Shown: positions 963 through 22,361 of the stretch, piece after piece
Numbering within the stretch: the first letter of the stretch is position 1
Layout: each line of letters opens with the position of its first letter
Source: an uncultured archaeon
Lineage (GTDB): Archaea > Asgardarchaeota > Lokiarchaeia > Sigyniarchaeales > Promethearchaeaceae
Direction: 5' to 3'
DNA length: 23,901 nucleotides
Assembly: GCA_964623665.1 (NCBI GenBank)
Contig: CAZUTM010000001.1
Location: 56,129 to 80,029 of the forward strand
Notes under the pieces: generated by a model
The model's database searches: none
Told to the model about the DNA's origin: nothing
Seen by the model: only the letters and a program-made list of their open reading frames with translations
Translations under genes and position numbers: made by a program

Positions 963-3900
963 ATGTTTGAAGACATCATCGATTTCCTTTATTCCAATCG
1001 CTTCATAGATTTATATGAGTGGGCAAAGAAGGCATCTATTCAAAATATGAATTTACTTCCCACGAATTATCTTCGGTTCTTAAACCTTTTACATGAAGGG
1101 AAAATCGATGATGCGATTGATGTATTACAGCAAATTTCCACTATTGAAGTAGAGAACGAAAAGTTGACTATCGCTCTTAATGTTCTAAAGGAAAAGCGAA
1201 ATATTCTATTGGAGATTTCTCAATATCTTTCCAAATTTGACAAGAATAAACCCTTTGTGAATGTTGTTCTTGATAAGTATATTCTCGTTGGTCAGGTTTC
1301 GGATAGTTCTGAATATTCAAAAATCAACTCTATCGAAAGGCTAAAAGAATTGGCTTCAAATCCGAATGTGTGTTATTATAATGGAAATATTATTGAGTTC
1401 AAAGGAATATCTTCTATTGAACGGCTTTCTGCCATCATAAATGATCAAGATTTTATGTCCCAAATGGAAAATATTAAGAAATATGAAAAAGTGTATTATT
1501 TTATTAGCAAAATAAACGAGAAGATGCAGCGCTATTTTTCAGAAAATAAAATCGGCATGATTGTATATAATCAAGAATTATATCTGATCAAATTTATTCC
1601 GATGTTCTCATTTGATAATTCCGCGCAACCAACGTCCGGGAAGAGGGTAAGTGTCTTAGACAATAATTTTGGAACCATAATCGGGATATTAATAAATTCA
1701 GATTTATCTTTTGGCGATATGGTCGTATTTCAAGAGGAATCTTTGAATTCTGGAGAGATGAATTTGCGGCCCTTAATCTCATTTGATTTGTCTCTGTTTA
1801 AAACTGAAGAAAAAAAGAATTCCGGGTTTACTCTCGAAACCGAGGAAGATATCAACAAATTTATTACTGCTGTAAAAGATTGGATTGATTTTGGAGTTCA
1901 AATATTATCTTCTAATAAAAAAATTGATTTGAAAAACCGACAAGATCTTTATATTTATACCAAAATGGAACTCCAAAAATTAGAAAATGAGCAAAATCTG
2001 AATATTAAAATCTCTAAGTTATCTCAATTGCTAAATTTTGATCATGACCAAGAAATGGAACGAAAAATCAAAGAAATACTTGAAAAAACCTATTTGATTT
2101 ATATCCGGGAAACCGCATCAAAAAAACTCCCTCTTAAATTAAAAGAATTGTTAAATCGGCTTATCAACCTTAAGCTGTTCAAATCGGAAGAGTCTTTTAT
2201 GAAGTTCATGAATCTCTATTCGTTCATTCTTGATAAATATTCTTTGGATCCGAAAGAAATCATAGAAAGTATTGATCTTTTGGATAAAAACTGGGATCTG
2301 AATGATCAACATTACAAAATCATTGAGAAAATCCATCTAACCGCGATCGCAAGCCTTATCGAGCCCCAAGTGGCTTCGGGAAATATTCAAGATATCCTTT
2401 CAATAATTGAAAAGAATACTCCAAAATCTAAGATACTTCAAAACAAATTGAATCTTCTAATAATCGATGTTGTGTACCATATTTATAAAAACGCCTTGAA
2501 AAAAGACACTAAGGGTGCGATCTCGAATATCACTTTCATAATGTTCTTAAGGAAATTAGCCATCCATTACGATAAAGCATTTCCATCAATATCCTTTGCG
2601 CATCAAGAGGAATCCAACAGAAGCAATGAGCCTTATAATAATATCACCTTGCTACAGCAAAAATTGGATTCATTATTTCTTAGCATTACCTCACAATTAG
2701 AATTTCTTCTCTACATGGGGGACCAATCGATCATTGAATTTCTCGAGTTAATTAAGGATTTTCCGAGCCGGATGTTAAAACCAAACATCAAAGAAACGTT
2801 AATTGGTCAAATTCTGAAGAATGCCATCGTATTAATTCCTGCCCACGGTATGTATGAACTGGGAAAGAAATTAATTGAATTTCTCGTTTCTCAGAAAAAA
2901 ACCACTCAATTCGTTTCTTTCATAACAAAATTCGTTGAGAGTTTAAATCAAAGCGCATTTAACGATATTAACAACTCAAGGTATTTGGAATCTATTGTTA
3001 TCATTTTCGATGCTATTGAAAGTTATCTTCCAACCCTTGCGATAAAAGAAGAGTATCTTATTCCGTTCAAAAGCGAAGTCCAAACCTTATTGAATAACTG
3101 GTACAAAAAAGGAAATCTTCCAAAGACCGATTTTAATCTTCACAAAAGGCTTCTTCAACGGCTTTCAATATACATCGAAAAGAATTCAGATGTCAAAATG
3201 ATGTATTATATGATTACGATTAAAGATATCCTCGAAACTAATCCTGACAATTGGACCAATCTTGATAATAAATTTTCCTTATTTATTCCCGAAATTATAA
3301 ACGATAGGAAAGTGCGAAATCTCTTTTTATCCGAAGCATACAAATGTATTGAACTGAATAAAATTGAAGATATCTTACTTTTCCAAAGAACGGTCAATAT
3401 ATTTCAATTGATCTTAAAATATCGATTAGAGATGGCTGTAGAGAATGAAATTATTGACAATCTCATCAAAGTATTTAATAAACAAATTGAGAAAACGCTT
3501 CTCTATTTTTTAACACACCAAGAGAACGAAGCAATTCAATCATTATTTTCAAAAATAAAAAATATTAAGGAAATAATTTCCGTTCCCGTTTTCCAAACCT
3601 TTTTCGACGAATTACTCTCGAAAATCGAATTCAATCATGAAAAACTGCCTTATGTTGAAAATATTCTCTCTCTTGTCCTTCAGACCTTTGAATTGATAAA
3701 TTCTATCAAAATTGAGAAGTCCGATTTTATTAAATATTTGCATATCATTACGCTTCCGATACTTTCCGATGAGAATGCGAAATCCCGGCTGTTAATCTCG
3801 CTTAAGTCGCAATTTGATGCAAAATTTGAGATTTTTACCCAAGGCCTTGTTGTCGCAGCCTCTTCCTATTACCTTTCGGAGCAATATCAATCCTATTATT

Positions 3901-4544
3901 ACACCCAATCCCAATCCAATTTGAATACAATCTTCAGTTTCTATTTTCAAATTATATTATTCAATTTAGAATTTGCCCCAATGGCCAATCAAATCAAGCA
4001 GAAAATCGAATTGCTTTTCTTCCTTTTCCATAATAACCGGATTCACCTCCAATCGAGAATCGTATTATTGAATATTCTATTTAATATTGTTAAACAATAT
4101 AATTTCTATGATCTCTTCGAATTTATCAATAACGAGATCAGCATTTGCGGGAAATTGGAATCAATTAAAGAATATCTCGATAATAAAATTAATAAACAAC
4201 AAAACTTGAAGCAAAAGACAGATGAACAAATCGATACGGATATTGAAATCCTCTTGAAAGATCAGGAAAATTACTTGAATGACTTTTTCTATCAATACTA
4301 CCTCGGATTATTCTTCTTCTATAGAAAAAACTATCAAAATGCCGAAAAATTTCTGAAAAAAGCATTTGTTTTGGATTGTCCGGAAAGCCTTAAACTTAAA
4401 AAATATCGAAATTACATGTTTCTATTGCACAAACTGAATAAAAAACAAGAATTGATGAAGATATATATCGAAGCACCATCAGATATCAAAGAAAATGAAA
4501 CCTTCAAAGAATATATTGCACCTCTCGGGCTAACTCAAGCATAA
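963..4544 (+). CDS. Large (1193 aa) hypothetical protein, apparently helical-repeat with a TPR-like C-terminal segment
   Basis: Longest ORF in the window, uninterrupted in AT-rich DNA where stops are frequent. It is K/I/L/E/N-rich. The C-terminal YYLGLFFFYRKNYQNAEKFLKKAFVLD resembles a TPR helix pair. No catalytic motif was recognised. A TATA-like TTTTAAATAA at 924-933 lies about 30 nt upstream of the ATG. Confidence 0.8.
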   Translation: MFEDIIDFLYSNRFIDLYEWAKKASIQNMNLLPTNYLRFLNLLHEGKIDDAIDVLQQISTIEVENEKLTIALNVLKEKRNILLEISQYLSKFDKNKPFVNVVLDKYILVGQVSDSSEYSKINSIERLKELASNPNVCYYNGNIIEFKGISSIERLSAIINDQDFMSQMENIKKYEKVYYFISKINEKMQRYFSENKIGMIVYNQELYLIKFIPMFSFDNSAQPTSGKRVSVLDNNFGTIIGILINSDLSFGDMVVFQEESLNSGEMNLRPLISFDLSLFKTEEKKNSGFTLETEEDINKFITAVKDWIDFGVQILSSNKKIDLKNRQDLYIYTKMELQKLENEQNLNIKISKLSQLLNFDHDQEMERKIKEILEKTYLIYIRETASKKLPLKLKELLNRLINLKLFKSEESFMKFMNLYSFILDKYSLDPKEIIESIDLLDKNWDLNDQHYKIIEKIHLTAIASLIEPQVASGNIQDILSIIEKNTPKSKILQNKLNLLIIDVVYHIYKNALKKDTKGAISNITFIMFLRKLAIHYDKAFPSISFAHQEESNRSNEPYNNITLLQQKLDSLFLSITSQLEFLLYMGDQSIIEFLELIKDFPSRMLKPNIKETLIGQILKNAIVLIPAHGMYELGKKLIEFLVSQKKTTQFVSFITKFVESLNQSAFNDINNSRYLESIVIIFDAIESYLPTLAIKEEYLIPFKSEVQTLLNNWYKKGNLPKTDFNLHKRLLQRLSIYIEKNSDVKMMYYMITIKDILETNPDNWTNLDNKFSLFIPEIINDRKVRNLFLSEAYKCIELNKIEDILLFQRTVNIFQLILKYRLEMAVENEIIDNLIKVFNKQIEKTLLYFLTHQENEAIQSLFSKIKNIKEIISVPVFQTFFDELLSKIEFNHEKLPYVENILSLVLQTFELINSIKIEKSDFIKYLHIITLPILSDENAKSRLLISLKSQFDAKFEIFTQGLVVAASSYYLSEQYQSYYYTQSQSNLNTIFSFYFQIILFNLEFAPMANQIKQKIELLFFLFHNNRIHLQSRIVLLNILFNIVKQYNFYDLFEFINNEISICGKLESIKEYLDNKINKQQNLKQKTDEQIDTDIEILLKDQENYLNDFFYQYYLGLFFFYRKNYQNAEKFLKKAFVLDCPESLKLKKYRNYMFLLHKLNKKQELMKIYIEAPSDIKENETFKEYIAPLGLTQA

Positions 4545-6924: not shown

Positions 6925-7803
6925 ATGAAAATTTTGATATTATGCGCGCATCCGGATGATTTGGAATTCTGTATCCCGAATCTACTTATCGGATTGTCTC
7001 GAAATCCCGAAATCTCTTCTGAACAAAAGAAAGAATTAAACAGATTTCTCTTTTCCGAGAAAAGGAAAGGCCAGAGCTCGGAGATCTGTGTGTATTCGAT
7101 GACCAAAGGTGAGATGAGTACATTCACCGATGTGATAAAATCAACGAAACGAGCTGCCGAAATCCGCATTAAAGAGCTAAATAAAAGCCAACATCTCTTA
7201 ACTGGAAAAACTCCGCATTTTCTTAATTTCTTCGATGGTTATCTGAAAGTCACCGATAAAGCCGTTGCAATTATAGAAAAGATTATAGCGAGGGATCGGC
7301 CGGATATTGTATTGGCCCCCGAGCCTTGTTTGGGCTATTACCATCATCCCGATCATGTTGCCACCGGAAAAATAGCCTTCTATGCGGTTCGACGATTGCG
7401 GACTAAAGAAAAAGCGAATAAACCGATTTTATATTTCTTTCAATCGATTTCCAACGATTGGTATTACCCGGATTTCCCGTTCAACAAAGAAAGAATTAAA
7501 AGCGCTTTAGCCGCGCATAAATCACAACAAGGGATTTTGTTTGCAGGCTCGATATTAAAATGGTTTGAAACATTAATTCATGGCCTTCATATTCGGAATT
7601 ATACGAGGGCGGAATGTTTGAGGTGGCAACCCGTTTTTGGCACAATTACGCAGAAAACAATCCGATATCGCTTTGAAAAGATGAATTTTCTAAAGAAAAT
7701 CATATATTATGTGTCGAAACATTTTGTGGATGCTCATCCTGTGAAGTACTCCGTTCGATATGATAAATATTATGATGGAACGGTCGAATTGGAAGATGTT
7801 TAA
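6925..7803 (+). CDS. PIG-L / LmbE family N-acetylglucosaminyl deacetylase
   Basis: MKILILCAHPDDLEF (AHPDD motif) and YYHHPDHVATGK (HPDH motif) are the zinc-site signatures of the PIG-L/LmbE family. I prefer ATG 6925 to the track start 6823, because the AHPDD motif normally lies close to the N-terminus and the extra 34 codons look non-coding. Confidence 0.85.
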   Translation: MKILILCAHPDDLEFCIPNLLIGLSRNPEISSEQKKELNRFLFSEKRKGQSSEICVYSMTKGEMSTFTDVIKSTKRAAEIRIKELNKSQHLLTGKTPHFLNFFDGYLKVTDKAVAIIEKIIARDRPDIVLAPEPCLGYYHHPDHVATGKIAFYAVRRLRTKEKANKPILYFFQSISNDWYYPDFPFNKERIKSALAAHKSQQGILFAGSILKWFETLIHGLHIRNYTRAECLRWQPVFGTITQKTIRYRFEKMNFLKKIIYYVSKHFVDAHPVKYSVRYDKYYDGTVELEDV

Positions 7804-7918: not shown

Positions 7919-8790
7919 ATATATTTAATCCGAATCTTTCAAAAAAACAAATTCAGAACAGAGGGCATTGGTACACCAACGATCATTGCTTTGTAAAGTC
8001 ATCCGATGGAACATGGCACGCGTACGGCATAGTCGGCTATAAAAAATTTGGGTTTGTGTTCTCTTGGATAATTGAGAAGAATTTGTTTCATATTTCTTCT
8101 AAATCTCTCTTTTCGGAAGAATGGCAAGAACATGACTATGCATTATCTGCATCGACCGAACAAGGTGAGCGATTTGCATGGGCTCCGCATGTTCTCTATT
8201 GGAATGGCAAATACTATATGTTTTACGCGGTAGGAGACCTCAGAAAATTCTCTTGGCTTCTCCCTTCTCCCGGAAAAATACATATGGCCACATCTAATGA
8301 TGCGTTCAATTGGAAAAGATCAAATACGAACCCAATCGTTTATGCCCCGGGTTATGCTCGAGATCCGATGATTCTCTTCACTAATAACGAATTCTATATG
8401 TATTACACGTGCAACACAAGCGAGATTCACTATGCTTCCGCTGTTGCGGTAAAAAAAAGTAAGGATTTGATCTATTGGACCGGCCCGAAATTGGTTCACC
8501 AATATCCTTTTAACAAAATATGGTTGGCAGGTCATACCGAAAGCCCATTCGTGGTGGAAAGAAAGGGCATTTACTATCTTTTTACGTGCATGGCGTTGAA
8601 AAATTACAATTTGACCAAAGTTTATTGGTCGAAAAACCCCGAATGGTTTCCCCGAAAAAATTTTATCTGCGATCTCAATACCCATGCATCAGAAATCATT
8701 TTTGATGAAAAAGAAGGCTGGTTTATCTCCAATACGGGTTGGGATAAAAAGGGACTTTTTCTTGCGCGCTTAAGGTGGAAGGGCCTTTAA
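7855..8790 (+). CDS. GH43-like five-bladed beta-propeller glycoside hydrolase (clan GH-F), cytoplasmic
   Basis: Blade-like motifs WAPHVLYWNGKYYMFYA, ARDPMILFTNNEFYMYYT and GHTESPFVVERKGIYYLFT. No signal peptide. The start lies inside the ME repeat; ATGs at 7855, 7861, 7867 and 7873 are all in frame. Confidence 0.7.
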   Translation: MEMEMEMEIEIEKPEIEGEWKHIFNPNLSKKQIQNRGHWYTNDHCFVKSSDGTWHAYGIVGYKKFGFVFSWIIEKNLFHISSKSLFSEEWQEHDYALSASTEQGERFAWAPHVLYWNGKYYMFYAVGDLRKFSWLLPSPGKIHMATSNDAFNWKRSNTNPIVYAPGYARDPMILFTNNEFYMYYTCNTSEIHYASAVAVKKSKDLIYWTGPKLVHQYPFNKIWLAGHTESPFVVERKGIYYLFTCMALKNYNLTKVYWSKNPEWFPRKNFICDLNTHASEIIFDEKEGWFISNTGWDKKGLFLARLRWKGL

Positions 8791-8950
8791 ATTACAGACA
8801 TGAAATATAAAGAGCAAAATGATCGCTGGAAAAATAACCGACTCCGCAAATCTTGTTGACATATTCTGCGGGAATGCATGTGACCCCTCTCTTTTTTTTA
8901 GATGTTCATTTTTTTCAATTCAAGCCAATACACGACTCGCAAATAGGTAA

Positions 8951-9123
8951 ATGTGTGCGATCGAACGGCATATTATGAGTGCGGGTACGATCGAACGGAA
9001 TAATATGCGTGCGGGTGCGATCGAACGGCATATTATGAGTGCGGGTACGATCGAACGGAATAATATGCGTGCGGGTGCGATCGAACGGCATATTATGAGT
9101 GCGGGTACGATCGAACGGAATAA
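8951..9123. repeat. Perfect 60-bp tandem repeat, about 2.8 copies, built from two diverged 30-bp half-units
   Basis: The unit GTGCGATCGAACGGCATATTATGAGTGCGG + GTACGATCGAACGGAATAATATGCGTGCGG starts at 8955, 9015 and 9075 with no mismatches between 60-bp copies. The half-units differ at 4 of 30 positions. Each half-unit contains a CGATCG palindrome. The array lies between convergent genes, beyond their T-run terminators. Confidence 0.95.
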
Positions 9124-9143
9124 AATAGAAAGAGAAGTTGAAT

Positions 9144-9150
9144 AAAAAAA
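9144..9150 (-). terminator. Oligo-T (T7 on the minus strand) just downstream of the actin stop codon
   Basis: A7 on the plus strand at 9144-9150 gives T7 in the actin sense, 14 nt past the stop. A short stem, CGGTG (9158-9162) pairing with CACCG (9171-9175), spans the stop codon. Archaeal terminators are typically oligo-T. Confidence 0.4.
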
Positions 9151-9163
9151 TATTGTGCGGTGT

Positions 9164-10312
9164 TTAGAAGCACCGGTGGATAACTTGAGCACCGTATTGT
9201 TTGTATTCCCTGCGGGTAACCCACATTCTCTGGAAGGTCTTCAACGAAGCAAGGATAGATCCTCCAATCCAGACCGAATACATACGTTCGGGTGGTGCAA
9301 TAATCTTTACATCGACTGAATCCGCAACTTGTTCTTTGATTTCTTTGGTTAACCGTTCTTTTAATCCCGGATACATGGTGGAACCACCGGACAGAACGAT
9401 GTTTGCATACAAATCTCTTCGGAGGTCGACATCACATTCTTTGATTGCGTTAACAATAAGGTCATCGAGTGGTTGCAACTCTTTTCCGATAACGCTCGGG
9501 TTAAAGAACACTTCTGGTGCCAAGAATCTCTCAACACCGATTGTGATGGTTTCTCCATCGGGTAACATATAGACTTTTTCCATACCCGAAACCCGTTTGG
9601 CCAAGAGAATTTCTTTTTCTGGGTTCAATGCAACATAACATAATTTTTCTTTAATATCCCGAACGATTTCTTTTTCCGCACCGGTTGAGAATGCGTGTCC
9701 TTTTTGTCTTAAAAGTCTCTGTAAATAGTTGGTTATATCCCGCCCTGCGAGGTCAACACGGGCAATTGTGTGACTGAGCGCGAAACCTTCATAGATGGGA
9801 ACCACGTGCGAAACTCCATCACCGATATCAATAACACAACCAGTGGTACGTCCAGATCCGTAGAGAGAAAGGACTGCTTGCATAGAAACATACATAGCCG
9901 GAACATTGAAGGTCTCGAACATAATTTGTGCCATCTTCTCTCGGTTTTTTCTCGGGTTCAAAGGTGCCTCCGTTAACAAAATCGGGTGTTCGGAGGGATC
10001 GACTCGAAGATCAGTAAAGAAGGTGTAGTGCCAGATTTTCTCCATGGCAATCCAGTCCTCAATAATACCGTGTTCAACAGGATAATTTAATTTCAAAACA
10101 CCTTTCATCGAAAGCGCTTCTTCACCGATATAATACTCCCGCGAGTAGTGTTCTACATCAGACATAATCGAAACATATTTTGGATATCCAACGAGCGTGG
10201 GAAACACACTACGTGGTTGGTCTTCACCGGCAAAGCCGTTTTTGGACATACCAGTACCGTTGTCTACTACAAGCGGTTTCGCTGATAGGAAATCTTGTTC
10301 TTCAGCCGCCAT
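9164..10312 (-). CDS. Eukaryote-like actin (lokiactin-type Asgard actin)
   Basis: Long stretches match canonical actin motifs: [108 protein letters not shown] and [23 protein letters not shown]. The length of 382 aa is close to eukaryotic actin. Confidence 0.97.
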
Positions 10313-12908: not shown

Positions 12909-14651
12909 TTAACCGACAGAATGATAATGAACGCTGGATCCGCGGTAGTGCAAACTCGAACGATAATATCCACGACGATATCTTGGGCCCACAATATAAC
13001 TCATCGGGTGGTATCTAACGATTTTCTCTATAACCGGGAACATTATGTACAAGGAGGTAATATGCATAATCGGCATCGTGAAGTACCTTAGTTTTATTAA
13101 GTCTTCAAGTGAGACTTCATCTTCCAACTCAAGAATCCGCTGATTAATGCACATGAGGAAAGCCATTTCGAGCATCTCCGGGATGAAACGGAACTCTTTG
13201 GATTTCATTATGATGTTTTGAGCCCGTTTAACGATGCACCAGGATTTTTCCACCGACCAAGGTAAAAGGGTAGCAAGTGCTGCGAAGAACCCGATTTCTT
13301 GGATATTGAATTTCAAAATTTCTCTGTATTGCAAGATGTTTTCGGGTTGCTTTGCAAAGGAAAGAAGAAATGCTGAAATCACTTTTTCGTTTAAGTCTTT
13401 AAATTCTATTTTGGAATATGGGTTGTTCGGGTCTGGTGGTTGTGTCTGAATCGCTTTTTGATTTGTTATTTGCCCGGGTTGACCCATTTGGTTTGTTTGT
13501 TGATTGAATGGTAGGCCCGATTGACCCATTTGATTCTGAATATTTGAATAACCTTGCTTAGGCTGCAAAAATGGGGGGGATTGACCACTACCACCATATA
13601 GCGTTTGAATTTGGGGTTTCGGAAGCAATTGCTCAATTAGGTATTTCAAGCGAGCGGAAACATCATTGCGAATCTTTTGTGTGAAATCTTGCGACAATGA
13701 CAAATTAACTGAGCGAAATTCTGTGTTGTTTCTGATGGTCCTTACATATTGATCGATGATAGGATCTTGATTCGCTCTGCTATTCCCGATTCTTTGCATC
13801 ATTTGTTCAAAGAAATTCAAAATTGCAATCATGGTGTTTCTCTCTTGTGAAAATTGTAATAAGGCGGTGTATTCCGGGCTTTGGTTTAATGGGATTTTAT
13901 AGGTATTGAATTGCACACCGTAAAGCCAGCCAAGCAATAATAGAATTATTTCTTCAAACTCGTCATAATTGGGATATTGCCAAATTTGATCCATACTTGA
14001 AGCGATTCTTGAGGCATTTCCTCCGATATTCACCGCAAACAATCCAAAGCTTCTTGGGAATTGACGGAATCGCGTCGTATCATCAATATCTTTCAAGATC
14101 GTCTCGAAGGCCGCATCAAGCGATTTAAGATGAAATAAAAACTCCTTAAAATCTCGTTGCAGCATGTTCGGTCGGACCTTTAATTCGTCGATGCAATCCT
14201 TTCCAAAGAGGGTTAATTGAACCCTTCTTCCATTGACAATCAGAGATTTATTGAGGATTTCCAACTTTTGATTTGTTGCCATCATTTGGTCGCGCAGAGT
14301 ATTCACTTTAGTCTCTATTTCAGAAACATTTTTCTTTGCAGCTTCGAATTCCGCCCTTAGAAGATTTGATTTGCTCATTTTAAATGCCAATTTTTTGAGG
14401 ATGGGGAGCTGTTTCACTTCTTGTTCTTTCCAAAGCAGAAAATTTTTCGCTTCTCTGAGTTTTTCAGATTCTTTGATAAATTCTGCTTTGATTCGAGTAT
14501 ATTCCTCTTTTATCTGACCAGGGTCTCCATCGATCTTGACTTCCGATAACAGACCATCGGAAATTAATACTTCTAGCTCATCGGGTCGGATCGAAGGGAT
14601 GAGCGTTCGATTGAACGTCTCCAAATATTCCAATACTTTTTTACTTTCCAT
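12909..14651 (-). CDS. Hypothetical protein: N-terminal coiled-coil, central Q/N/P/G-rich low-complexity linker, C-terminal helical region with an R/Y/G-rich tail
   Basis: 580-aa uninterrupted ORF. Heptad-like charged N-terminus (EEYTRIKAEFIKESEKLREAKNFLLWKEQEVKQL). Linker YGGSGQSPPFLQPKQGYSNIQNQMGQSGLPFNQQTNQMGQPGQITNQKAIQTQPPDPNNPY. Tail GPRYRRGYYRSSLHYRGSSVHYHSVG. No known domain was recognised. Confidence 0.75.
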   Translation of the reverse strand: MESKKVLEYLETFNRTLIPSIRPDELEVLISDGLLSEVKIDGDPGQIKEEYTRIKAEFIKESEKLREAKNFLLWKEQEVKQLPILKKLAFKMSKSNLLRAEFEAAKKNVSEIETKVNTLRDQMMATNQKLEILNKSLIVNGRRVQLTLFGKDCIDELKVRPNMLQRDFKEFLFHLKSLDAAFETILKDIDDTTRFRQFPRSFGLFAVNIGGNASRIASSMDQIWQYPNYDEFEEIILLLLGWLYGVQFNTYKIPLNQSPEYTALLQFSQERNTMIAILNFFEQMMQRIGNSRANQDPIIDQYVRTIRNNTEFRSVNLSLSQDFTQKIRNDVSARLKYLIEQLLPKPQIQTLYGGSGQSPPFLQPKQGYSNIQNQMGQSGLPFNQQTNQMGQPGQITNQKAIQTQPPDPNNPYSKIEFKDLNEKVISAFLLSFAKQPENILQYREILKFNIQEIGFFAALATLLPWSVEKSWCIVKRAQNIIMKSKEFRFIPEMLEMAFLMCINQRILELEDEVSLEDLIKLRYFTMPIMHITSLYIMFPVIEKIVRYHPMSYIVGPRYRRGYYRSSLHYRGSSVHYHSVG

Positions 14652-16033: not shown

Positions 16034-17707
16034 TTATCTCCTATTAATTTTAATTTTGGGCGGCTTCTTTCCTTGGAGGAACATCGCTCCGACCAATTGG
16101 AAATTGAGTTTTGAATATATCTTTTGAACGGGAGCATTCCATGTTGCCATTTCCGTGATTGCTTCGTAGCCCAAATCTCGGAGTGCAGATAATCGAGCAT
16201 TTACTAAATGCCGTCCGATGCCGCGGTTTCGGAATGCCGGATGAACATAAAGGCCGTATAACCATCCCATTTTTTCCGACGGCGTGCAAAACGCACAGCC
16301 GATAATCACTTCTCCATTGATAATATCGGGTCGAGAATATTTCTTCACGGTAGGACTGGCTAAAATTTCCTGTACCCATGGTGCGCTCACGGGGACTTTA
16401 GCAACGTAAATCAAATCGCTGATCCTCGATTTATCAACCCACTTCGCGTTTTTAATATCATCATTACCCACATCCTCGATGGAAATAATCTTTTTTATCG
16501 GATTGATATATTCTGCACGCAACGGACTGATCATTTGCGTGTCATAAGAAAGATCTAGCCCGGTTAAATTGTCGCATTTGAATATTTTATATTCCTCAAT
16601 CGTTGAAAATCTCTCATTTTTGAATTCGGTAAAGAACACGTAGGGATTCGCATATTTGATCAATTCGTTGATACCACTTCCGAAAAACGAACCCACGTGG
16701 CCCTCTTTATCCAAAATGCCGATCCCCACAACTTTATCATTGAGCACCGCGGATACGATTTTCTCATTAAATACCACAGCCCGATGTAAATATTCCGGAA
16801 TCAATTTTATGTAATTGGAAGATAATTCTATTGGTTTATTTTGAATCCCTTGCATAATGGTCATGGGCCCTTTTTGTGTTTGCACTAATCTAGGTTTCCA
16901 TCTTATAACATTATAAATCGGAAAGATCACCACAAGGAATCCAACAAATGGCAACCAAAAGACCAGAAGCACGGAGATATAATCAATCGGAATCTCATAG
17001 CTTGCCGCGAAAATCCGAATCGTGGAAGATTTTTCAAACTCGGAATCACTCCATGCCCCCGTTCCTTTATCTGTTTCTTTGTAGTTCTCTCCTAAAATCC
17101 ATCCATCTTTATTGAAAATCATCTCGCTTGTTGAATATGCTCGGAATGTTCCATACGCATCATTGCGGTTAAATTCCCCGCTTGAAACAATCTTTGTTCC
17201 CTTAAACGGTACCAATCCGGTCCAATAGGTTCCTACTCCGGAAAATTGATATTCTTGATCCAACAACCAATAGGTGTCTGATGGGCTGTCGTTTTCGGCA
17301 ACAAATGTATAAAACCAAACTTGCATCGTTGTTGCATTGAAATCTTGATCATGGCCGGTTAAATACTCCAAGGTCTCGCGGGAATACGTGAAATCTATAA
17401 TATCCTTGCTTGAATTATCTTGGTTTTCGCCATATCCATCAGAATACTTATAAGTCCATTCAACCGTACCCGTTACTCTGGCGGTAGTTCCTTGAAACTG
17501 GATCTTGTAATGCCCGATCGCATTGAAATCTTCGCTGACTCCGTAATAGCGGCCCGCCGTCCCGCGAACTTTCCAATCCCACCGATATTTAAACTCGACA
17601 TCATAATTAGAAACGATCTTGCTTTGGGATATTGCCGTAATCAAGAAAATGCCTTGGATCACCAAAAATCCGATGTAGAGAAGGGCTAACCATTTTCGCT
17701 TTTGCAT
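16034..17707 (-). CDS. Bitopic membrane protein with an extracytoplasmic domain and a C-terminal cytoplasmic GNAT acetyltransferase domain
   Basis: Signal anchor KWLALLYIGFLVIQGIFLITAI. About 210 aa of W/Y/T/G-rich domain. Second TM VLLVFWLPFVGFLVVIFPIY. C-terminal GNAT core with the acetyl-CoA motif LYVHPAFRNRGIGRHLV. Confidence 0.8.
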   Translation of the reverse strand: MQKRKWLALLYIGFLVIQGIFLITAISQSKIVSNYDVEFKYRWDWKVRGTAGRYYGVSEDFNAIGHYKIQFQGTTARVTGTVEWTYKYSDGYGENQDNSSKDIIDFTYSRETLEYLTGHDQDFNATTMQVWFYTFVAENDSPSDTYWLLDQEYQFSGVGTYWTGLVPFKGTKIVSSGEFNRNDAYGTFRAYSTSEMIFNKDGWILGENYKETDKGTGAWSDSEFEKSSTIRIFAASYEIPIDYISVLLVFWLPFVGFLVVIFPIYNVIRWKPRLVQTQKGPMTIMQGIQNKPIELSSNYIKLIPEYLHRAVVFNEKIVSAVLNDKVVGIGILDKEGHVGSFFGSGINELIKYANPYVFFTEFKNERFSTIEEYKIFKCDNLTGLDLSYDTQMISPLRAEYINPIKKIISIEDVGNDDIKNAKWVDKSRISDLIYVAKVPVSAPWVQEILASPTVKKYSRPDIINGEVIIGCAFCTPSEKMGWLYGLYVHPAFRNRGIGRHLVNARLSALRDLGYEAITEMATWNAPVQKIYSKLNFQLVGAMFLQGKKPPKIKINRR

Positions 17708-17900: not shown

Positions 17901-18968
17901 ATGCACCAAAATAGCAAAGGTCGTGTGTACAGCATTGTATTAATGGCAATTCTGATTTCGAGCCATGTATCGGTTTCTATTGCGGTTTGCCAAAGCGAGT
18001 TGAAAACTCTATCCGAAATTTGGATTCGTGACCCCAATATCGTGTTCTATGAAGGTAAGTATTATATGACCGGAACAACTGCTGATGATGGCTTTTTAGG
18101 CTTTAGTTCTTCCGATTTGGTGAATTGGGAGTCTCATGGATATATTTATCGCAAAAATGATTCGAATAGTTGGGCAAAAAGATTATTTTGGGCTGCCGAA
18201 ATTGTACCGTATAATGGAAAATTTTATCTTTTCTTTACCGCAGATAAAGAAGGCGGGATTCGTGGGACCGGAGTTGCCGTTTCCGATTCTGCCATGGGCC
18301 CATATGTTGATCTGATCCCCGAGCCTTTGACTCCTAAGGAATTTCATTGCTTGGATGGGCATGTGTTCAAGCATCCAAACGGTTCCCTTTATTTCTACTA
18401 TGTTTTCGAATGGATCAACAATGGTACTGGCGAAATGTGGGTTCAAGAGATCGCTCCGGACTTCAAAAGTCTGTTGGGCACGCCAAAATCGCTGTTTAAA
18501 GGTGGAGATGCCAAATGGTCCAATGGCGTCGTTGATGGGCCTTCCATGCTCTTCGTGAATAACACGTATTATTTGTTCTGGAGTTCGTTTAATAAAGAAA
18601 CAAATGGGCATTATTGCGCCGGATATGCCTCCGCATCGGATCCTTGGGGCCCCTTTACTCAATCCAATAGACCGGTGATTTGGGATGATTGCGGCCATTC
18701 GACATGGTTTATCGAGAATTCTACGGGAAAATTGAAAATCACATTTCACAAACCGAACGGGCCCATCGGGAGCGGAAATGAGCGTGCAGTAATAAAGGAT
18801 TTGTTATTCGATTCAAAACTGCGCACTTGGTACGTCTATCCGCCTGAGTCTGCATATCCGGAAAATGCATGGCTCGGTCCTGTGATGATGGTTTCGTTGG
18901 TGGTAGTTGTACTCGGAATTTCGGTGATCATAATTCGCAAATTAAAAAAAACGAAACATATTTCTTAA
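17901..18968 (+). CDS. GH43-family beta-propeller glycoside hydrolase, secreted and C-terminally membrane-anchored
   Basis: Signal-like VYSIVLMAILISSHVSVSIAV. GH43 blade motifs IRDPNIVFYEGKYYMTGT, WAAEIVPYNGKFYLFFTA, LDGHVFKHPNGSLYFYY and VDGPSMLFVNNTYYLFWS. C-terminal TM VMMVSLVVVVLGISVIII followed by RKLKK. Five N-x-S/T sequons. Confidence 0.85.
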   Translation: MHQNSKGRVYSIVLMAILISSHVSVSIAVCQSELKTLSEIWIRDPNIVFYEGKYYMTGTTADDGFLGFSSSDLVNWESHGYIYRKNDSNSWAKRLFWAAEIVPYNGKFYLFFTADKEGGIRGTGVAVSDSAMGPYVDLIPEPLTPKEFHCLDGHVFKHPNGSLYFYYVFEWINNGTGEMWVQEIAPDFKSLLGTPKSLFKGGDAKWSNGVVDGPSMLFVNNTYYLFWSSFNKETNGHYCAGYASASDPWGPFTQSNRPVIWDDCGHSTWFIENSTGKLKITFHKPNGPIGSGNERAVIKDLLFDSKLRTWYVYPPESAYPENAWLGPVMMVSLVVVVLGISVIIIRKLKKTKHIS

Positions 18969-19042: not shown

Positions 19043-19531
19043 ATGAATCTTTCTGAAGAAGAGAAGCGATTAATCGATGTCCGTGTTTATCCGATTCGAC
19101 CCCATATCGGCGTGGGCTGTATCATTCGCTATTATGATCAAATTTTGCTTATAAAGCGGAAATATGACCCCGAAGCGGGTAAATGGTCGATTCCGGGTGG
19201 GCATCTTGAGCTGGGCGAATCGCCGGAGGAAGGTGCGGCCAGAGAAGCAAAGGAAGAAGTTGGAATCGATGTGAAAATCATTGGATTATCCGGCGTCGTT
19301 AACAAAATTCTTAAAGATAATCACGGGAAGATAAAATACCATTATGTTTTGATTAATTTCTTTGCCGAACCTATATTAAATAAAAATCAAGGTGAACTCG
19401 TGATTCGGCCTTCAGAAGAATGCCTTGATGCAAAATTTGTATCGATCTCGGAATTAAACACCTTTGATTTAACCAAATCGCTTCTGGATCATTTTATCTT
19501 TTTGGGCTTAATGAATAAGCCATGCATGTGA
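19043..19531 (+). CDS. Nudix hydrolase
   Basis: Complete Nudix box GGHLELGESPEEGAAREAKEEVGI (G-x5-E-x7-REUxEExGU). Confidence 0.9.
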   Translation: MNLSEEEKRLIDVRVYPIRPHIGVGCIIRYYDQILLIKRKYDPEAGKWSIPGGHLELGESPEEGAAREAKEEVGIDVKIIGLSGVVNKILKDNHGKIKYHYVLINFFAEPILNKNQGELVIRPSEECLDAKFVSISELNTFDLTKSLLDHFIFLGLMNKPCM

Positions 19532-19540
19532 TTGTTTTTG

Positions 19541-19562
19541 TTTTTTTTTCATGAAAAAAAAA
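19541..19562. terminator. Bidirectional oligo-T terminator: perfect 22-nt palindrome T9-CATG-A9
   Basis: TTTTTTTTTCATGAAAAAAAAA read directly. It gives T9 to the plus-strand Nudix transcript 10 nt after its stop, and T9 to any minus-strand transcript coming from the RT gene. Confidence 0.5.
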
Positions 19563-19563
19563 G

Positions 19564-19574
19564 TTTTAATTTTT
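19564..19574 (+). promoter_or_regulatory. TATA-like box (TTTTAATTTTT) that could drive a plus-strand transcript starting near 19595
   Basis: An AT-only element centred about 26 nt upstream of the 5' arm of the terminal helix of the structured element. This is the spacing expected for archaeal TATA-to-TSS. It is weak evidence in AT-rich DNA. Confidence 0.25.
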
Positions 19575-19594
19575 GAATCTTCATTTTAGTTTTG

Positions 19595-19809
19595 TGTAGC
19601 TTTGGCGTTCTCGCAAGAGAAGGCGCGATGTATCATCGTGCAGGACCGATTGCGGTATTGCTGCATTCCATAACTCGGCGATCATTTATTCAAATAACTG
19701 CCGAGTTGAATGCTACGCACAATATTTAAACAAATATCGGCGTTGATGCGCCCTATTTTGTTTCAATTTGGTCGGTCGACCAAATATTTGACTCGAAAGC
19801 AAAGCTACA
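19595..19809. ncRNA. Candidate structured ncRNA of about 215 nt next to the RT gene (possible RT template/msr-msd analogue); strand unresolved
   Basis: A GC-enriched patch in AT-rich DNA. A 10-bp terminal helix pairs 19595-19604 (TGTAGCTTTG) with 19800-19809 (CAAAGCTACA). Internal hairpins: 19608-19612/19617-19621 with a GCAA (GNRA) loop; 19623-19630/19634-19641 (8 bp, one G-U); 19645-19648/19653-19656; 19672-19679/19700-19707 (8 bp perfect, AACTCGGC/GCCGAGTT); 19739-19742/19749-19752; 19767-19773/19778-19784. T6 lies at 19815-19820 in the plus sense and T9 at 19562-19554 in the minus sense. Confidence 0.5.
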
Positions 19810-19831
19810 TATTCTTTTTTCGCTTTCTTTG

Positions 19832-19865
19832 TTTTCTCTCTCGCTGTTTTCTTTTCTCTCTCGCT
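19832..19865. repeat. 14-nt direct repeat TTTTCTCTCTCGCT x2 (period 20) inside a strand-skewed pyrimidine tract (purine-rich on the RT strand)
   Basis: Identical copies at 19832-19845 and 19852-19865. The whole 19811-19890 stretch is almost entirely C/T on the plus strand. Confidence 0.85.
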
Positions 19866-19898
19866 TCTTTGTCTCATTCTCATTTCTGTGATCGTTAA

Positions 19899-21410
19899 TC
19901 ATTTTGGAGATCCATCGATCATTTTTTTAAATTTCTGTGCTTTTTGAGGATTCACCATGTGTAGAAATGCTATTTTTCCTTGAATCTCGTTCAGTTCCCG
20001 TTCCTTTTCTTCTTTTTGCAATCCTTCTTTGTTTTCATTGAATTGGTGGATTTGAGCCCGCAATTTCATACACCATTGCCTATCGGGGTTCAATTCATCA
20101 TTTACCACGATTCCGGTTATCCGTTTCTTATGACCCTTTCGGTAATACTTAATTTTTTCAAGATTGGGCTTTAATTCTTCATCCGTAATGATTCCTAAGG
20201 AATAATAGACCATTTTATCTAAATTATGAATTGTTTGCTTGGTTGAAATGGCAATGTCATCCGCATATCTCGTATATACAAAGCCCATTTTTGTCCAAAA
20301 AGCGTTGAGTCGTGCATCCAAATTTTTTGCGTAGAGATTTGCAATCATAGGGCTCGTTGGGGCGCCTTGAGGTGCATACCGCTTTTTTCGAAATACATCG
20401 GTGCATAAACACGCAAGAAGGCCTGCAACCGGTCTTCCGTATCCAAATCCTAGAAACACTTTGTAGACGTGAAGAAAGGAGAGGGAAGGAAAGAAATCTT
20501 CAAGATCGAGTTTGATCATCGATTCCGCTTTCAAATGCGGTTTTGCGTTATCAACAATCGATTTGCCGGTGCAAAAGCCTTTGCATACGTCCGGGACCTC
20601 GGATTTTTGAAGAATCTCCTTCAAAATCTTTTTTTGTATCATTTTCAATCGATATTTTGGTGCCGAAATCATTCTCATCTTGCCGTTCGCTTTGGGAATA
20701 AAATATCGTCGATAATGGGGCGAATTATATTCTCTCCATCTCGTTTTATTGAAAAGAAGATGCTTTTTCTTTATATAATATCTTGGGTTATCCGGATCTT
20801 GTGAATATGCATAGCCTAACAATTCGTTAACACTAATATTCAGAAAATATGCGAGATCTATTATTGTCGATACGTGCGGGAGTTCGGTTCCCGGCTTCAA
20901 ATTGAAAACAAACTTTCGAGGCATAGAAGTATATACAATTTTATTTAAATTTGGTCCGAAATATACTCTTTTCAACAAAGGAAACACAGATTCAATCATT
21001 TTTACTCGTTCGAAAGGTAGCTTTGGTGTATTTTTATTAATGGCGTTCAATAAAGAACGTTTAAATCGGGTGTGATATCTCATTGAATGGGCCTTGATTT
21101 TATTATTCACATCATTGGAATGGGCTTTTCTATTCACATTATACTTGAAATTGGCTCTTATCCTTATTTCATTAACAAACTTTTGAAAATCTGCGTCAGA
21201 ATCGGTTAAAATCTTCTCTTTTATTTTCTCTTCCAAAATAGGGAATAAGGATAGTTTGTATCTTTCTAATCTCCTTATCCTTGCTCTCGACGATGATTTC
21301 TTCTTTGAGCGACGCGTGTTCGCTTGATTGTAAAAATAAAGATTCAACACGATTATTATGAAGAAAATTAAAAACAGTGTAATCCACAAGAGAAGCAATG
21401 AGCCTTCCAT
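19899..21410 (-). CDS. Retron-type reverse transcriptase with an N-terminal transmembrane helix and basic extension
   Basis: RT motifs occur in order: YFIPKANGKMRMISAPKYRLKMIQKKIL (1-2), LDLEDFFPS (3), PQGAPTSPMIANLY (4), YTRYADDIAIS (5; YADD = 20256-20267) and KRITGIVVN (7, VTG-type). The retron-specific NAxxH (DNAKPH, 20535-20549) lies upstream of motif 3. The N-terminus has LLLLWITLFLIFFIIIVLNLYFY followed by RRSKKKSSSRARIRRLERYK. Confidence 0.9.
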   Translation of the reverse strand: MEGSLLLLWITLFLIFFIIIVLNLYFYNQANTRRSKKKSSSRARIRRLERYKLSLFPILEEKIKEKILTDSDADFQKFVNEIRIRANFKYNVNRKAHSNDVNNKIKAHSMRYHTRFKRSLLNAINKNTPKLPFERVKMIESVFPLLKRVYFGPNLNKIVYTSMPRKFVFNLKPGTELPHVSTIIDLAYFLNISVNELLGYAYSQDPDNPRYYIKKKHLLFNKTRWREYNSPHYRRYFIPKANGKMRMISAPKYRLKMIQKKILKEILQKSEVPDVCKGFCTGKSIVDNAKPHLKAESMIKLDLEDFFPSLSFLHVYKVFLGFGYGRPVAGLLACLCTDVFRKKRYAPQGAPTSPMIANLYAKNLDARLNAFWTKMGFVYTRYADDIAISTKQTIHNLDKMVYYSLGIITDEELKPNLEKIKYYRKGHKKRITGIVVNDELNPDRQWCMKLRAQIHQFNENKEGLQKEEKERELNEIQGKIAFLHMVNPQKAQKFKKMIDGSPK

Positions 21411-21430
21411 ACTTCTCTAGTGAGCCAAGT

Positions 21431-21442
21431 AAAATTTAAATG
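21431..21442 (-). promoter_or_regulatory. TATA-like box (minus sense CATTTAAATTTT) in the 36-nt gap upstream of the RT start
   Basis: It lies 21-32 nt upstream of ATG 21410, which would give a leaderless or very short-leader RT mRNA. This is weak evidence in AT-rich DNA. Confidence 0.3.
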
Positions 21443-21446
21443 TTAT

Positions 21447-22361
21447 TTAAGTTGATTTTGCGGAAGACCACACAATTCCGATGAAAATTAGCAAGGCTCC
21501 GATAGCAAACGCAAGCGTCAAATATTCCTGTCCAAAGAAGATTCCGAAAAGGACTGCAAATACCGGTTCCAGCGAGTACATGATGGCGGCCCGGGTTGAG
21601 TCAATAAATTTTTGGGCCCAGGTTTGGATCATGAGTGTCAATGTGGTTGAGCAAACTCCAAGATAGACCAAGCCCCAAATGATAATCGATGTGAAATCTT
21701 CGATAATAAGCCGTTCGCCCGCTATCCATGAGGCCAGAAACATGAAGATGCTTATGAGAATCATTTGTATCATGATGAATGCGAATATATCCACTTTTTT
21801 TACGTATTTTTCAATGAGAACGATTTGAATTGCGTTGAAAAATGCGCCCAAAATCACCAAAATATCGCCAATATTGGGTGCAAGTTCGAGATCCGCAGAA
21901 TTTGCATTTCCGAATATCATTATGGACATTCCGATCATCGCGACTGCAACCGCACCGATTTGATGCTTTTTTATTGGCGATTTGATGAGGAAATAGGCAA
22001 TAAACGGCACAAATACAACATATAAACAAGTTAGAAAAGCGCCTTTGTTCGATGTGGTATATTGAAGGCCGTAGGTTAAGAAGGCTAAGAGGAAGAAGAA
22101 CACTATGGCGCTTATTGATCCGCCTTCAACGGTGGTTTTGTTTAAACGCTTTAATCGACCCCACACGGGTGCGAAAGCGAGAAACGCAATTACATGCCGG
22201 ATTCCTTGAAATAATAGCGGAGGAATTTGTTCCACAGATTCTTTTATGAGAAGGTATTGCGAGCCCCAAATAATGGTGGCGAGGATTACTAAAATGATTG
22301 CGATCGTTTTTTTCATTTGCAGATCAGAGTTAGGTGCTTCTGGTGGTATCTCGCTTTCCAT
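21447..22361 (-). CDS. EamA/DMT-superfamily transporter (10-TM type)
   Basis: Two-fold repeated hydrophobic architecture. The N-terminal IIWGSQYLLIKESVEQIPPLLFQGIRHVIAF is typical of EamA domains. The start may be Met16 (MKKTIAI). Confidence 0.85.
   Translation of the reverse strand: MESEIPPEAPNSDLQMKKTIAIILVILATIIWGSQYLLIKESVEQIPPLLFQGIRHVIAFLAFAPVWGRLKRLNKTTVEGGSISAIVFFFLLAFLTYGLQYTTSNKGAFLTCLYVVFVPFIAYFLIKSPIKKHQIGAVAVAMIGMSIMIFGNANSADLELAPNIGDILVILGAFFNAIQIVLIEKYVKKVDIFAFIMIQMILISIFMFLASWIAGERLIIEDFTSIIIWGLVYLGVCSTTLTLMIQTWAQKFIDSTRAAIMYSLEPVFAVLFGIFFGQEYLTLAFAIGALLIFIGIVWSSAKST

Follow-up and report, generated by a model that had tools for sequence, protein, structure and literature searches.

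The locus analysed here raises the question of whether a retron-type reverse transcriptase (RT) of an Asgard archaeon is anchored in the membrane by its own N-terminus, and of which partners it would have there. The RT gene lies on the minus strand at 19899–21410 of the window, by which we mean the whole 23,901-nucleotide (nt) stretch of DNA under analysis, from an uncultured member of the Promethearchaeaceae. Retrons have been studied almost wholly in bacteria, as three-part systems in which an effector accompanies a soluble RT and an RNA that lies upstream of the RT and is transcribed together with it. The present locus departs from that plan in four ways: it is archaeal (Asgard), its RT is predicted to be membrane-anchored, its likely template RNA is a separate, convergent gene, and no effector gene is attached to it. 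The gene, its helix and their conservation, the RT family, and the structure and strand of the RNA were computed from the sequence, and we consider it probable that the 503-amino-acid (aa) product is a single-pass membrane protein with a cytoplasmic RT, paired with an msr-msd RNA that it would reverse-transcribe from a G after the terminal stem.

Profile, motif and structural comparison place the protein among the retron RTs, with type XIII (the Mx162 group) as its nearest type. RT_XIII was the best of the PADLOC retron RT models, which span 1e-45 to 2.8e-94, and the match at 2.8e-94 covers profile positions 138–420 of 469, while bona fide members reach 1e-126 to 1e-190 with almost all of the profile aligned. 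The best NCBIfam match was the retron St85 family (1.9e-63, under the curated cut-off). The closest solved structure by sequence was the retron Ec86 RT (7.7e-60), which also led a Foldseek search (E 2e-16) whose top 13 matches were all retron RTs. The fingers and palm occupy residues 238–433 (20112–20699, minus strand; Pfam RVT_1, 3.1e-24), with the YADD motif at 20256–20267. Y382 A383 D384 D385 (YADD), N288 A289 H292 (NAxxH) and T432 G433 (VTG) were invariant across 17 sequences; NAxxH and VTG are the defining motifs of retron RTs (PMC6868368). Judged by these motifs, the RT is catalytically intact. Type XIII comprises Retron-Mxa1/Mx162, Mxa2/Mx65, Sau1/Sa163 and Nex2/Ne144, which form RT clade 10 of Mestre et al. 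2020 (PMC7736814). On the grounds of RT family, motifs and RNA architecture the locus is a retron, but one that misses two type XIII features, the SWIM partner and an upstream, co-oriented RNA.

The RT is encoded by a single 503-codon open reading frame (ORF) with the N-terminus MEGSLLLLWITLFLIFFIIIVLNLYFYNQANTRRSKKKSSSRARIRRLERYK. Its start is fixed by an in-frame TAG 9 nt 5' of the ATG at 21410, with no alternative start codon in between. The first-pass annotation had pointed out that 162 further stop-free codons precede Met163, which would be improbable by chance, and the counts bear this out: across 20925–21410 the RT frame has stops in 0 of 162 codons, against 5–18 in each of the other five frames, and the chance of a stop-free run of this length is 1.4e-6 given the base composition (GC 0.32, 0.080 stops per codon). 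The extension also behaves as coding sequence, in that it remains in frame in homologues of just 41–48% identity and contains conserved motifs between the hydrophobic helix and the RT core. A TATA-like box, TTTAAATTTT, can be read from the sequence at 21431–21440 (minus strand), 21–30 nt upstream of ATG 21410, and may serve as the promoter box of the RT; TATA-like boxes also occur 20–50 nt 5' of the long-ORF start in homologues. Met1 is the sole Met 5' of the conserved extension motifs in the window RT, the next being M110. It could be argued that the upstream 110–162 codons are untranslated, that an internal Met is the true start, and that the hydrophobic stretch arose by chance from T-rich DNA, since AT-rich DNA (GC 0.32) easily yields peptides rich in F, I and L, and gene callers picked internal starts for four homologues (P0002, P0003, P0014 and P0125). 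We regard this as very improbable in view of the low odds of the open frame, the motifs conserved between the helix and M110, the retention of the helix and its charge asymmetry in about 23 relatives, one of them GC-rich, and the TATA-like box at −21 to −30 of ATG 21410; assembly gaps or a wrong start account for the short calls.

The extension opens with a predicted transmembrane signal-anchor helix at residues 4–27 (SLLLLWITLFLIFFIIIVLNLYFY; 21330–21401, minus strand), which agrees with the earlier description of a strongly hydrophobic N-terminal helix. The Kyte-Doolittle mean over 19 residues reaches 3.12 at residue 4, and the apparent free energy summed on a Hessa-type scale comes to −6.5 (scale values of Hessa et al. 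2005, here and for the relatives). The helix is preceded by only MEG, without K or R, and the 20 residues C-terminal of it contain six K/R and no D/E. A basic run, RRSKKKSSSRARIRRLERYK, occupies residues 33–52 (21255–21314, minus strand) on the predicted cytoplasmic side, so that the basic run and K/R-rich region reported to follow the helix are indeed present. The same pattern was found in the relatives. The 20 residues past the helix contained 4–7 K/R in 11/11 of them; among 11 sequences, the summed apparent free energy was negative in every one (−2.2 to −7.0), and the N-flank had no K or R in 10. Kyte-Doolittle values of the helix ranged from 2.0 to 3.4, and the external tail comprised 3–13 residues. 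An AlphaFold2 model built from 17 sequences (predicted local distance difference test, pLDDT, 79; predicted template modelling score 0.72) showed residues 2–54 as one continuous helix, with block pLDDT values of 83–95 over the first 30 residues.

An acidic or neutral N-terminal tail and a basic C-terminal flank around a hydrophobic helix predict a bitopic protein with its N-terminus outside and its C-terminus inside, and the charge pattern, as read from these sequences, is the signature of such a signal anchor rather than of a cleavable signal peptide. It has been proposed from the positive-inside rule that the RT domain is cytoplasmic and tethered to the membrane by the N-terminal helix. That prediction is supported by the helix and flank asymmetry in every relative with a readable N-terminus, membrane insertion itself being predicted. 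The opposite interpretation, a cleavable secretion signal and an exported RT, would explain why the segment is hydrophobic and N-terminal, but is extremely improbable: a positively charged n-region is absent (10/11 sequences lack K/R N-terminal of the helix), the positive charges sit on its C-terminal side, the hydrophobic core of about 23 residues is much longer than a signal-peptide h-region, and an RT requires cytoplasmic dNTPs as well as its RNA.

The clade in which this arrangement occurs is small. We found 17 close homologues among 5.8 billion protein clusters, and those with named sources came from metagenome-assembled genomes (MAGs) of Lokiarchaeota/Promethearchaeota. Together with the actin homologue encoded in the window, they mark the host as an Asgard archaeon. 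Full-length homologues (13/17) had a short acidic tail, a hydrophobic helix, a basic stretch, a conserved helical region and the RT, in that order. When 1.84 billion representative proteins were searched with a profile of residues 31–212, only 17 passed E ≤ 0.001, and 10 passed E ≤ 1e-10; in every clear clade member with a complete N-terminus from this search, the helix was present. A genome scan recovered three Asgard MAG loci among 185,579 species genomes, and scans with an N-domain profile gave no further clade members in metagenome contigs or in viral contigs. Counted together, about 23 relatives had a readable N-terminus, and all of them encoded the helix, the basic stretch, the helical domain and the RT, which answers the point on which the membrane proposal had been said to depend, the conservation of the extension in homologues. 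One relative from a GC-rich organism (P0124) retained the helix, indicating that the helix is not a by-product of AT-rich codons. A full-length profile run on metagenome contigs returned bacterial type XIII loci and one distant archaeal-type locus (L089), which is AT-rich; its RT (P0130, 470 aa, 2638–4050, plus strand) is 38% identical, and has a soluble N-terminal extension without a membrane helix.

The proposal would have been weakened by homologues in which the upstream segment is frame-disrupted, absent or a separate gene, and three short homologues bear on it. P0002 has the whole extension, helix included, and its frame changes fall exactly on runs of N, which are assembly gaps. For P0014, the called start is wrong: a 472-aa ORF beginning with MLLELSDLGFWIFFPILLFILILICLL extends upstream of it and carries the helix in frame. 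In the P0003 contig, a frameshift together with the loss of about 10 codons leaves a separate 82-aa helix-bearing ORF, and on a 3.9-kb contig at 4x coverage this frameshift may be real or made by the assembly; the prediction therefore meets a possible exception here, the other short homologues being explained otherwise.

Between the helix with its basic run and the RT core lies a clade-specific, all-helical N-domain (residues 53–146; 20973–21254, minus strand). The family alignment showed conserved motifs between helix and core (DPxLExK, SDEDF, INYKY, LKRSxLNVINK and FPLLKRVYFGP). In a profile-profile comparison (hhalign) with 25 bacterial type XIII RTs, residues 147–503 aligned with a probability of 100%, and the first ~146 residues had no counterpart, the bacterial type XIII N-domain included. 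The first ~146 residues are therefore clade-specific, because type XIII homology starts only at residue 147. The alignment begins at KRVYFGP, which matches the bacterial 'YLG ... LP...LA.AMGI' region, and takes in a linker and helix-turn-helix (HTH)-like segment common to type XIII RTs (residues 147–225; 20736–20972, minus strand). The suggestion that a typical retron RT would start near Met163, just before the HTH-like segment, thus holds for the segment and fails for the boundary, which lies at residue 147. A model of the N-domain alone (pLDDT 75.6) found no match in a fold search of the PDB (best E 2.2).

A long extension is in itself a likeness to the nearest family rather than a departure from it. 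Type XIII RTs (Mx162, Mx65, Sa163 and Ne144) are known to bear an extended N-terminus of unknown function (PMC6868368; PMC7736814), and in type XIII retron RTs it measures about 140 aa. The Asgard RT resembles them in this extension (noted for type XIII in PMC6868368), in having RT_XIII as its best RT profile, and in its homology from residue 147 to the C-terminus. It differs in its first ~146 residues, which show no relation to the bacterial N-domain and open with a membrane helix, and in its host, an Asgard archaeon.

Membrane helices were also present in bacterial type XIII RTs. P0051, P0088 and P0102 have an N-terminal short tail, a helix and then an RRKK-type basic stretch, a layout resembling that of the Asgard RT; the sequence following the helix is that of the bacterial type XIII N-domain and not the Asgard one. 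The Delftia acidovorans protein P0103 (658 aa, widespread), P0065 and P0029 have one to three C-terminal hydrophobic helices instead. All of these helix-bearing RTs score as type XIII (1e-126 to 1e-190). Two neighbourhoods were examined in this group, which includes loci L169 and L171, and both retain partner genes: SWIM_XIII adjoins the RT at the P0051 locus, and WGR_XIII and SWIM_XIII are present at the Delftia P0103 locus. By these sequence predictions, the membrane anchor is not unique to the Asgard clade and recurs in the type XIII RT class. Since helix-bearing type XIII RTs retain SWIM/WGR partners, the helix alone does not replace the effector in bacteria. The first-pass annotation did not recognise a helix fused to the N-terminus of an RT as a described architecture. 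We likewise found no paper in the searchable literature that describes a membrane helix fused to a retron RT, nor any description of the helix-bearing bacterial type XIII RTs; the architecture nevertheless has bacterial type XIII examples in public data.

Flank BLAST searches revealed conserved non-coding DNA just past the RT stop codon in the Asgard loci. In the window, it takes the form of a 219-nt msr-msd-like non-coding RNA (ncRNA) gene at 19593–19811 on the plus strand, convergent with the RT gene and with its 3' end 88 nt from the RT stop codon. The a1 arm (UGUGUAGCUUUG, 19593–19604) pairs with the a2 arm (CAAAGCUACAUA, 19800–19811) in a 12-bp helix, the candidate priming G follows a1 at 19605, and an invariant G precedes a2 at 19799. 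Two hairpins lie next to a1: P1 (UUCUC-GCAA-GAGAA, 19608–19621), taken from the minimum free energy (MFE) fold, and the conserved P2 (GCGCGAUG-UAU-CAUCGUGC, 19623–19641), which is 100% paired on the plus strand. A TATA-like box (TTTTAATTTTT, 19564–19574, plus strand) stands at a position shared with the other copies, and an oligo-T run right after a2 (19815–19820, plus strand) is like an archaeal terminator. The features of retron ncRNAs were thus all present, namely the a1/a2 repeats, a G next to the stem, 5' hairpins and variable 3' hairpins, and we consider 19593–19811, an element that the first-pass annotation did not cover, the likely template RNA of the RT.

The element is conserved beside the RT in nine Asgard-clade loci. 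Its terminal inverted repeats (6–12 bp) are locus-specific in sequence yet complementary (for instance TGTAGCTTTG, TAGACTCTG, TTAAATCCCTG and ATAGCCCTG), and the G after a1 is invariant among copies. The conserved hairpin has the consensus CGCGAUG-NNN-CRUCGYG and is accompanied by a variable region with further hairpins; a hairpin of 4–6 bp at the P1 position was found in 7/10 copies and is degenerate in those of L006 and L011. Pair statistics were taken from a fixed-end alignment of 10 copies from eight loci, counting the terminal helix and P2; P1 was left out of the count, its MAFFT alignment being out of register. Standard pairs made up 97.6% of cells, and changes on both sides occurred in 9/17 pairs, with 28 cells showing double changes. 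None of 500 shuffles matched the observed pairing or covariation score, and slid controls paired in 31–51% of cases. The fold z-score of the window copy was −7.2.

A covariance model of the element (R1) gave one untrained match (E 8.6e-6), and this was at the distant archaeal-type locus L089, at 2418–2578 on the minus strand, upstream of the RT, divergent from it and antisense. Two loci have tandem ncRNA copies with a single RT (7333–7494 and 7561–7722 in L003; 9671–9805 and 9901–10035 in L006); it is in the msd part that these copies diverge, and a separate promoter-like box accompanies each of them. In L005, the ncRNA is 1.27 kb away from the RT. Between them are ORFs of 205 and 85 aa (8275–8892 and 9071–9328, minus strand), in the orientation of the ncRNA, which have no Pfam or PADLOC match and are absent from the other loci. 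R1 found no ncRNA in L001, whose contig stops 95 nt past the RT. The model does not retrieve bacterial type XIII RNAs (best E 0.91, from the hairpin alone). The likeness to these RNAs consists of the a1/a2 arms and of a near-5' hairpin, CGRUG-NNN-CRYCG, with a U.G wobble at the same position; in bacterial type XIII the hairpin motif is located 30–45 nt past the a1 arm, on the RT strand and upstream of the RT. Rfam searches gave nothing relevant in the whole window at gathering thresholds or in 19300–21700 at E up to 10, and a tRNA scan found none.

The strand from which this RNA is read determines the layout of the locus. A reading on the RT strand was set aside on the evidence of wobble pairs, flanking Gs, promoter and terminator. 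P2 is paired in 100% of cells on the plus strand, compared to 80% on the RT strand, as 16 G.U cells turn into A.C there. On the plus strand the arms are flanked by invariant Gs, and the conserved hairpins fall at the 5' (msr) end; a priming G and an opposing G flanking the stem are the retron layout (PMC7736814). A TATA-like hexamer lies at −37 to −20 from the a1 core in 11/11 copies in the plus orientation and 2/11 in the other, a run of at least five Ts occurs within 20 nt past a2 in 8/11 and 1/11, respectively, and MFE was lower on the plus strand in 10/10 copies. Wobble pairs, flanking Gs, promoter- and terminator-like signals and MFE therefore favour an independent gene convergent with the RT gene. 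Bacterial retron ncRNA lies upstream of the RT and is co-transcribed with it; here the element is downstream and, by the strand evidence, antisense, which sets it apart from the co-oriented type XIII RNAs.

Read on the RT strand, the element would be an msr-msd embedded in the 3' untranslated region, co-transcribed in the order RT then ncRNA. Bacterial RTs and their ncRNAs are as a rule co-transcribed, pairing in the a1/a2 helix is equally good on either strand (95.6%), CYYTGCWAWC after the arm resembles the CCTTGCAAYC of bacterial type XIII msr, and fold z-scores are similar (−6.9, compared to −7.2 on the plus strand). This arrangement is nonetheless improbable, as it would turn the 16 P2 cells into A.C mismatches, place the conserved hairpins at the msd end and flank the arms with two Cs rather than two Gs; the TATA-like and oligo-T signals suit only the plus strand, and the L089 element, which is upstream of its RT, is again antisense. 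The 88-nt interval between the ncRNA and the RT stop codon (19812–19898) is pyrimidine-rich on the plus strand and GA-rich on the minus strand, with a 27-nt imperfect direct repeat (19812–19838 and 19849–19875). On the minus strand, the first T-run past the RT occurs only at 19554–19562, so the RT mRNA may read through the ncRNA in antisense, giving a sense-antisense overlap.

We next consider whether a third gene belongs to this pair. Type XIII retrons have a linked SWIM zinc-finger/winged-helix protein (cluster 114), mostly together with a WGR or HEAT/ARM protein. SWIM_XIII and WGR_XIII gave no tblastn matches in 128 kb of Asgard-clade loci, compared to 104–105/156 bacterial loci, and, unlike type XIII, the Asgard loci have no SWIM, WGR or HEAT/ARM partner. 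PADLOC found nothing in the unassigned ORFs of the window or in the neighbours at other loci. When ORFs lying up to 5 kb from the RT were compared all against all, no family was common to divergent loci; EamA and the region beyond it were shared only by the window and its close relatives L001 and L002. As far as these comparisons indicate, only the RT and the RNA are conserved as a unit, and a separate effector gene is absent in cis.

Membrane insertion, msDNA (multicopy single-stranded DNA) synthesis and any role in defence are what we infer from these features. The protein would be bitopic, N-out/C-in, with a 24-residue signal-anchor helix followed in the cytoplasm by the basic stretch, the helical domain and the RT, and the locus would constitute a minimal two-part archaeal retron of this RT and the 219-nt msr-msd-like gene, which is equipped with a TATA box and an oligo-T terminator of its own. 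The tethered RT would bind the P1 and P2 5' hairpins of the ncRNA, prime from the 2'-OH of G19605 following the a1/a2 stem, and copy the variable 3' part of the ncRNA into msDNA, and the RT-msDNA particle would be held at the inner face of the membrane. There, the membrane module may station a sentinel where viruses enter the cell, or may itself be the output, damaging the membrane when the msDNA complex is disturbed, in the manner of retron RTs with fused effector domains. A bolder version of this model, which we consider unlikely, is a two-component archaeal retron with an integral membrane RT that has no output module besides its N-terminal helix and domain, the template RNA coming from the independent antisense gene. 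If it were true, the system would be a self-contained membrane sensor-effector, would form a separate retron type and, so far as we could find, would be the first retron unit (RT plus ncRNA) to be defined in an Asgard archaeon.

It is conceivable that the effector is built into the RT, in that the RT-msDNA complex restrains its own helix and domain until a virus disturbs it, whereupon oligomerised helices would permeabilise the membrane (abortive infection). Several facts make this attractive: no effector gene is conserved in cis, retron types I-C, VII-A1, XI and XII fuse an effector to the RT (PMC7736814), and type IV uses a separate membrane effector with two helices (PMC8632793). Nevertheless, a single helix with an external tail of 3–13 residues would form pores poorly, SWIM/WGR partners are still present beside bacterial type XIII RTs that have a similar helix, and known fused effectors are C-terminal, and we consider the idea unlikely. 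A second possibility, which we find doubtful, is that the RT is domesticated and retron-like without a defence function, a tethered RT and RNA in a housekeeping or regulatory role. The housekeeping neighbours, the lack of a defence island, and the report that type XIII retrons are largely vertically inherited and possibly domesticated (PMC7736814) are consistent with it. However, genomic position varies between divergent loci, and the sparseness of the clade (3/185,579 species genomes; at most 17 of 1.84e9 proteins) is more accessory-like than core.

The preferred reading of a membrane-tethered RT paired with its RNA must itself be weighed against several observations. The separate 82-aa helix-bearing frame described above is found in one homologue (L002), and the sister RT of L089 (P0130), by its soluble N-terminus, is a sign that the anchor is not needed for an RT-ncRNA pair as such. 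No ncRNA was detected by R1 within 5 kb of the RT in L009. That helix-bearing bacterial type XIII RTs keep their SWIM/WGR partners favours, by analogy, a tether over an effector. The loci lie amid housekeeping genes (EamA, NUDIX, aEF-2, the CCA-adding enzyme and PmbA/TldD are the neighbours) and not in defence islands, and the gene for an effector may reside at another genomic site.

The Asgard RT can also be compared to known membrane-linked and fused retrons. Retrons with RT-fused effectors (I-C RT-Toprim, VII-A1 RT-DUF3800, XI RT-protease and XII RT-TIR; PMC7736814) resemble it in being one polypeptide without a separate effector, but their additional domain is a C-terminal enzyme, whereas the Asgard RT has an N-terminal membrane helix and a helical domain, and its PADLOC scores for the fused-effector RT models are lower than for RT_XIII. 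The type IV retron (Retron-Eco6/Ec48) is likewise membrane-linked, through a two-helix effector (PMC8632793); there, the membrane protein is a separate two-helix gene, and the RT is soluble and of a different clade.

The Mx162 group includes the first retrons discovered, and placement at the membrane offers a concrete hypothesis for the N-terminal extension of its RTs (type XIII). The ncRNA coordinates given above define a compact RT-RNA pair for experimenters.

Elsewhere in the window, large ORFs of 1193, 580, 530 and 407 aa, among them those at 963–4544 (plus strand) and 12909–14651 (minus strand), had no Pfam or PADLOC match. A 557-aa protein (16034–17707, minus strand) combines an N-terminal helix and an internal hydrophobic stretch with a C-terminal GNAT domain, and a GH43 glycosidase (17901–18968, plus strand) has a C-terminal hydrophobic anchor. 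The window also encodes a 382-aa actin homologue of the lokiactin type at 9164–10312 on the minus strand (Pfam Actin, 8e-132).

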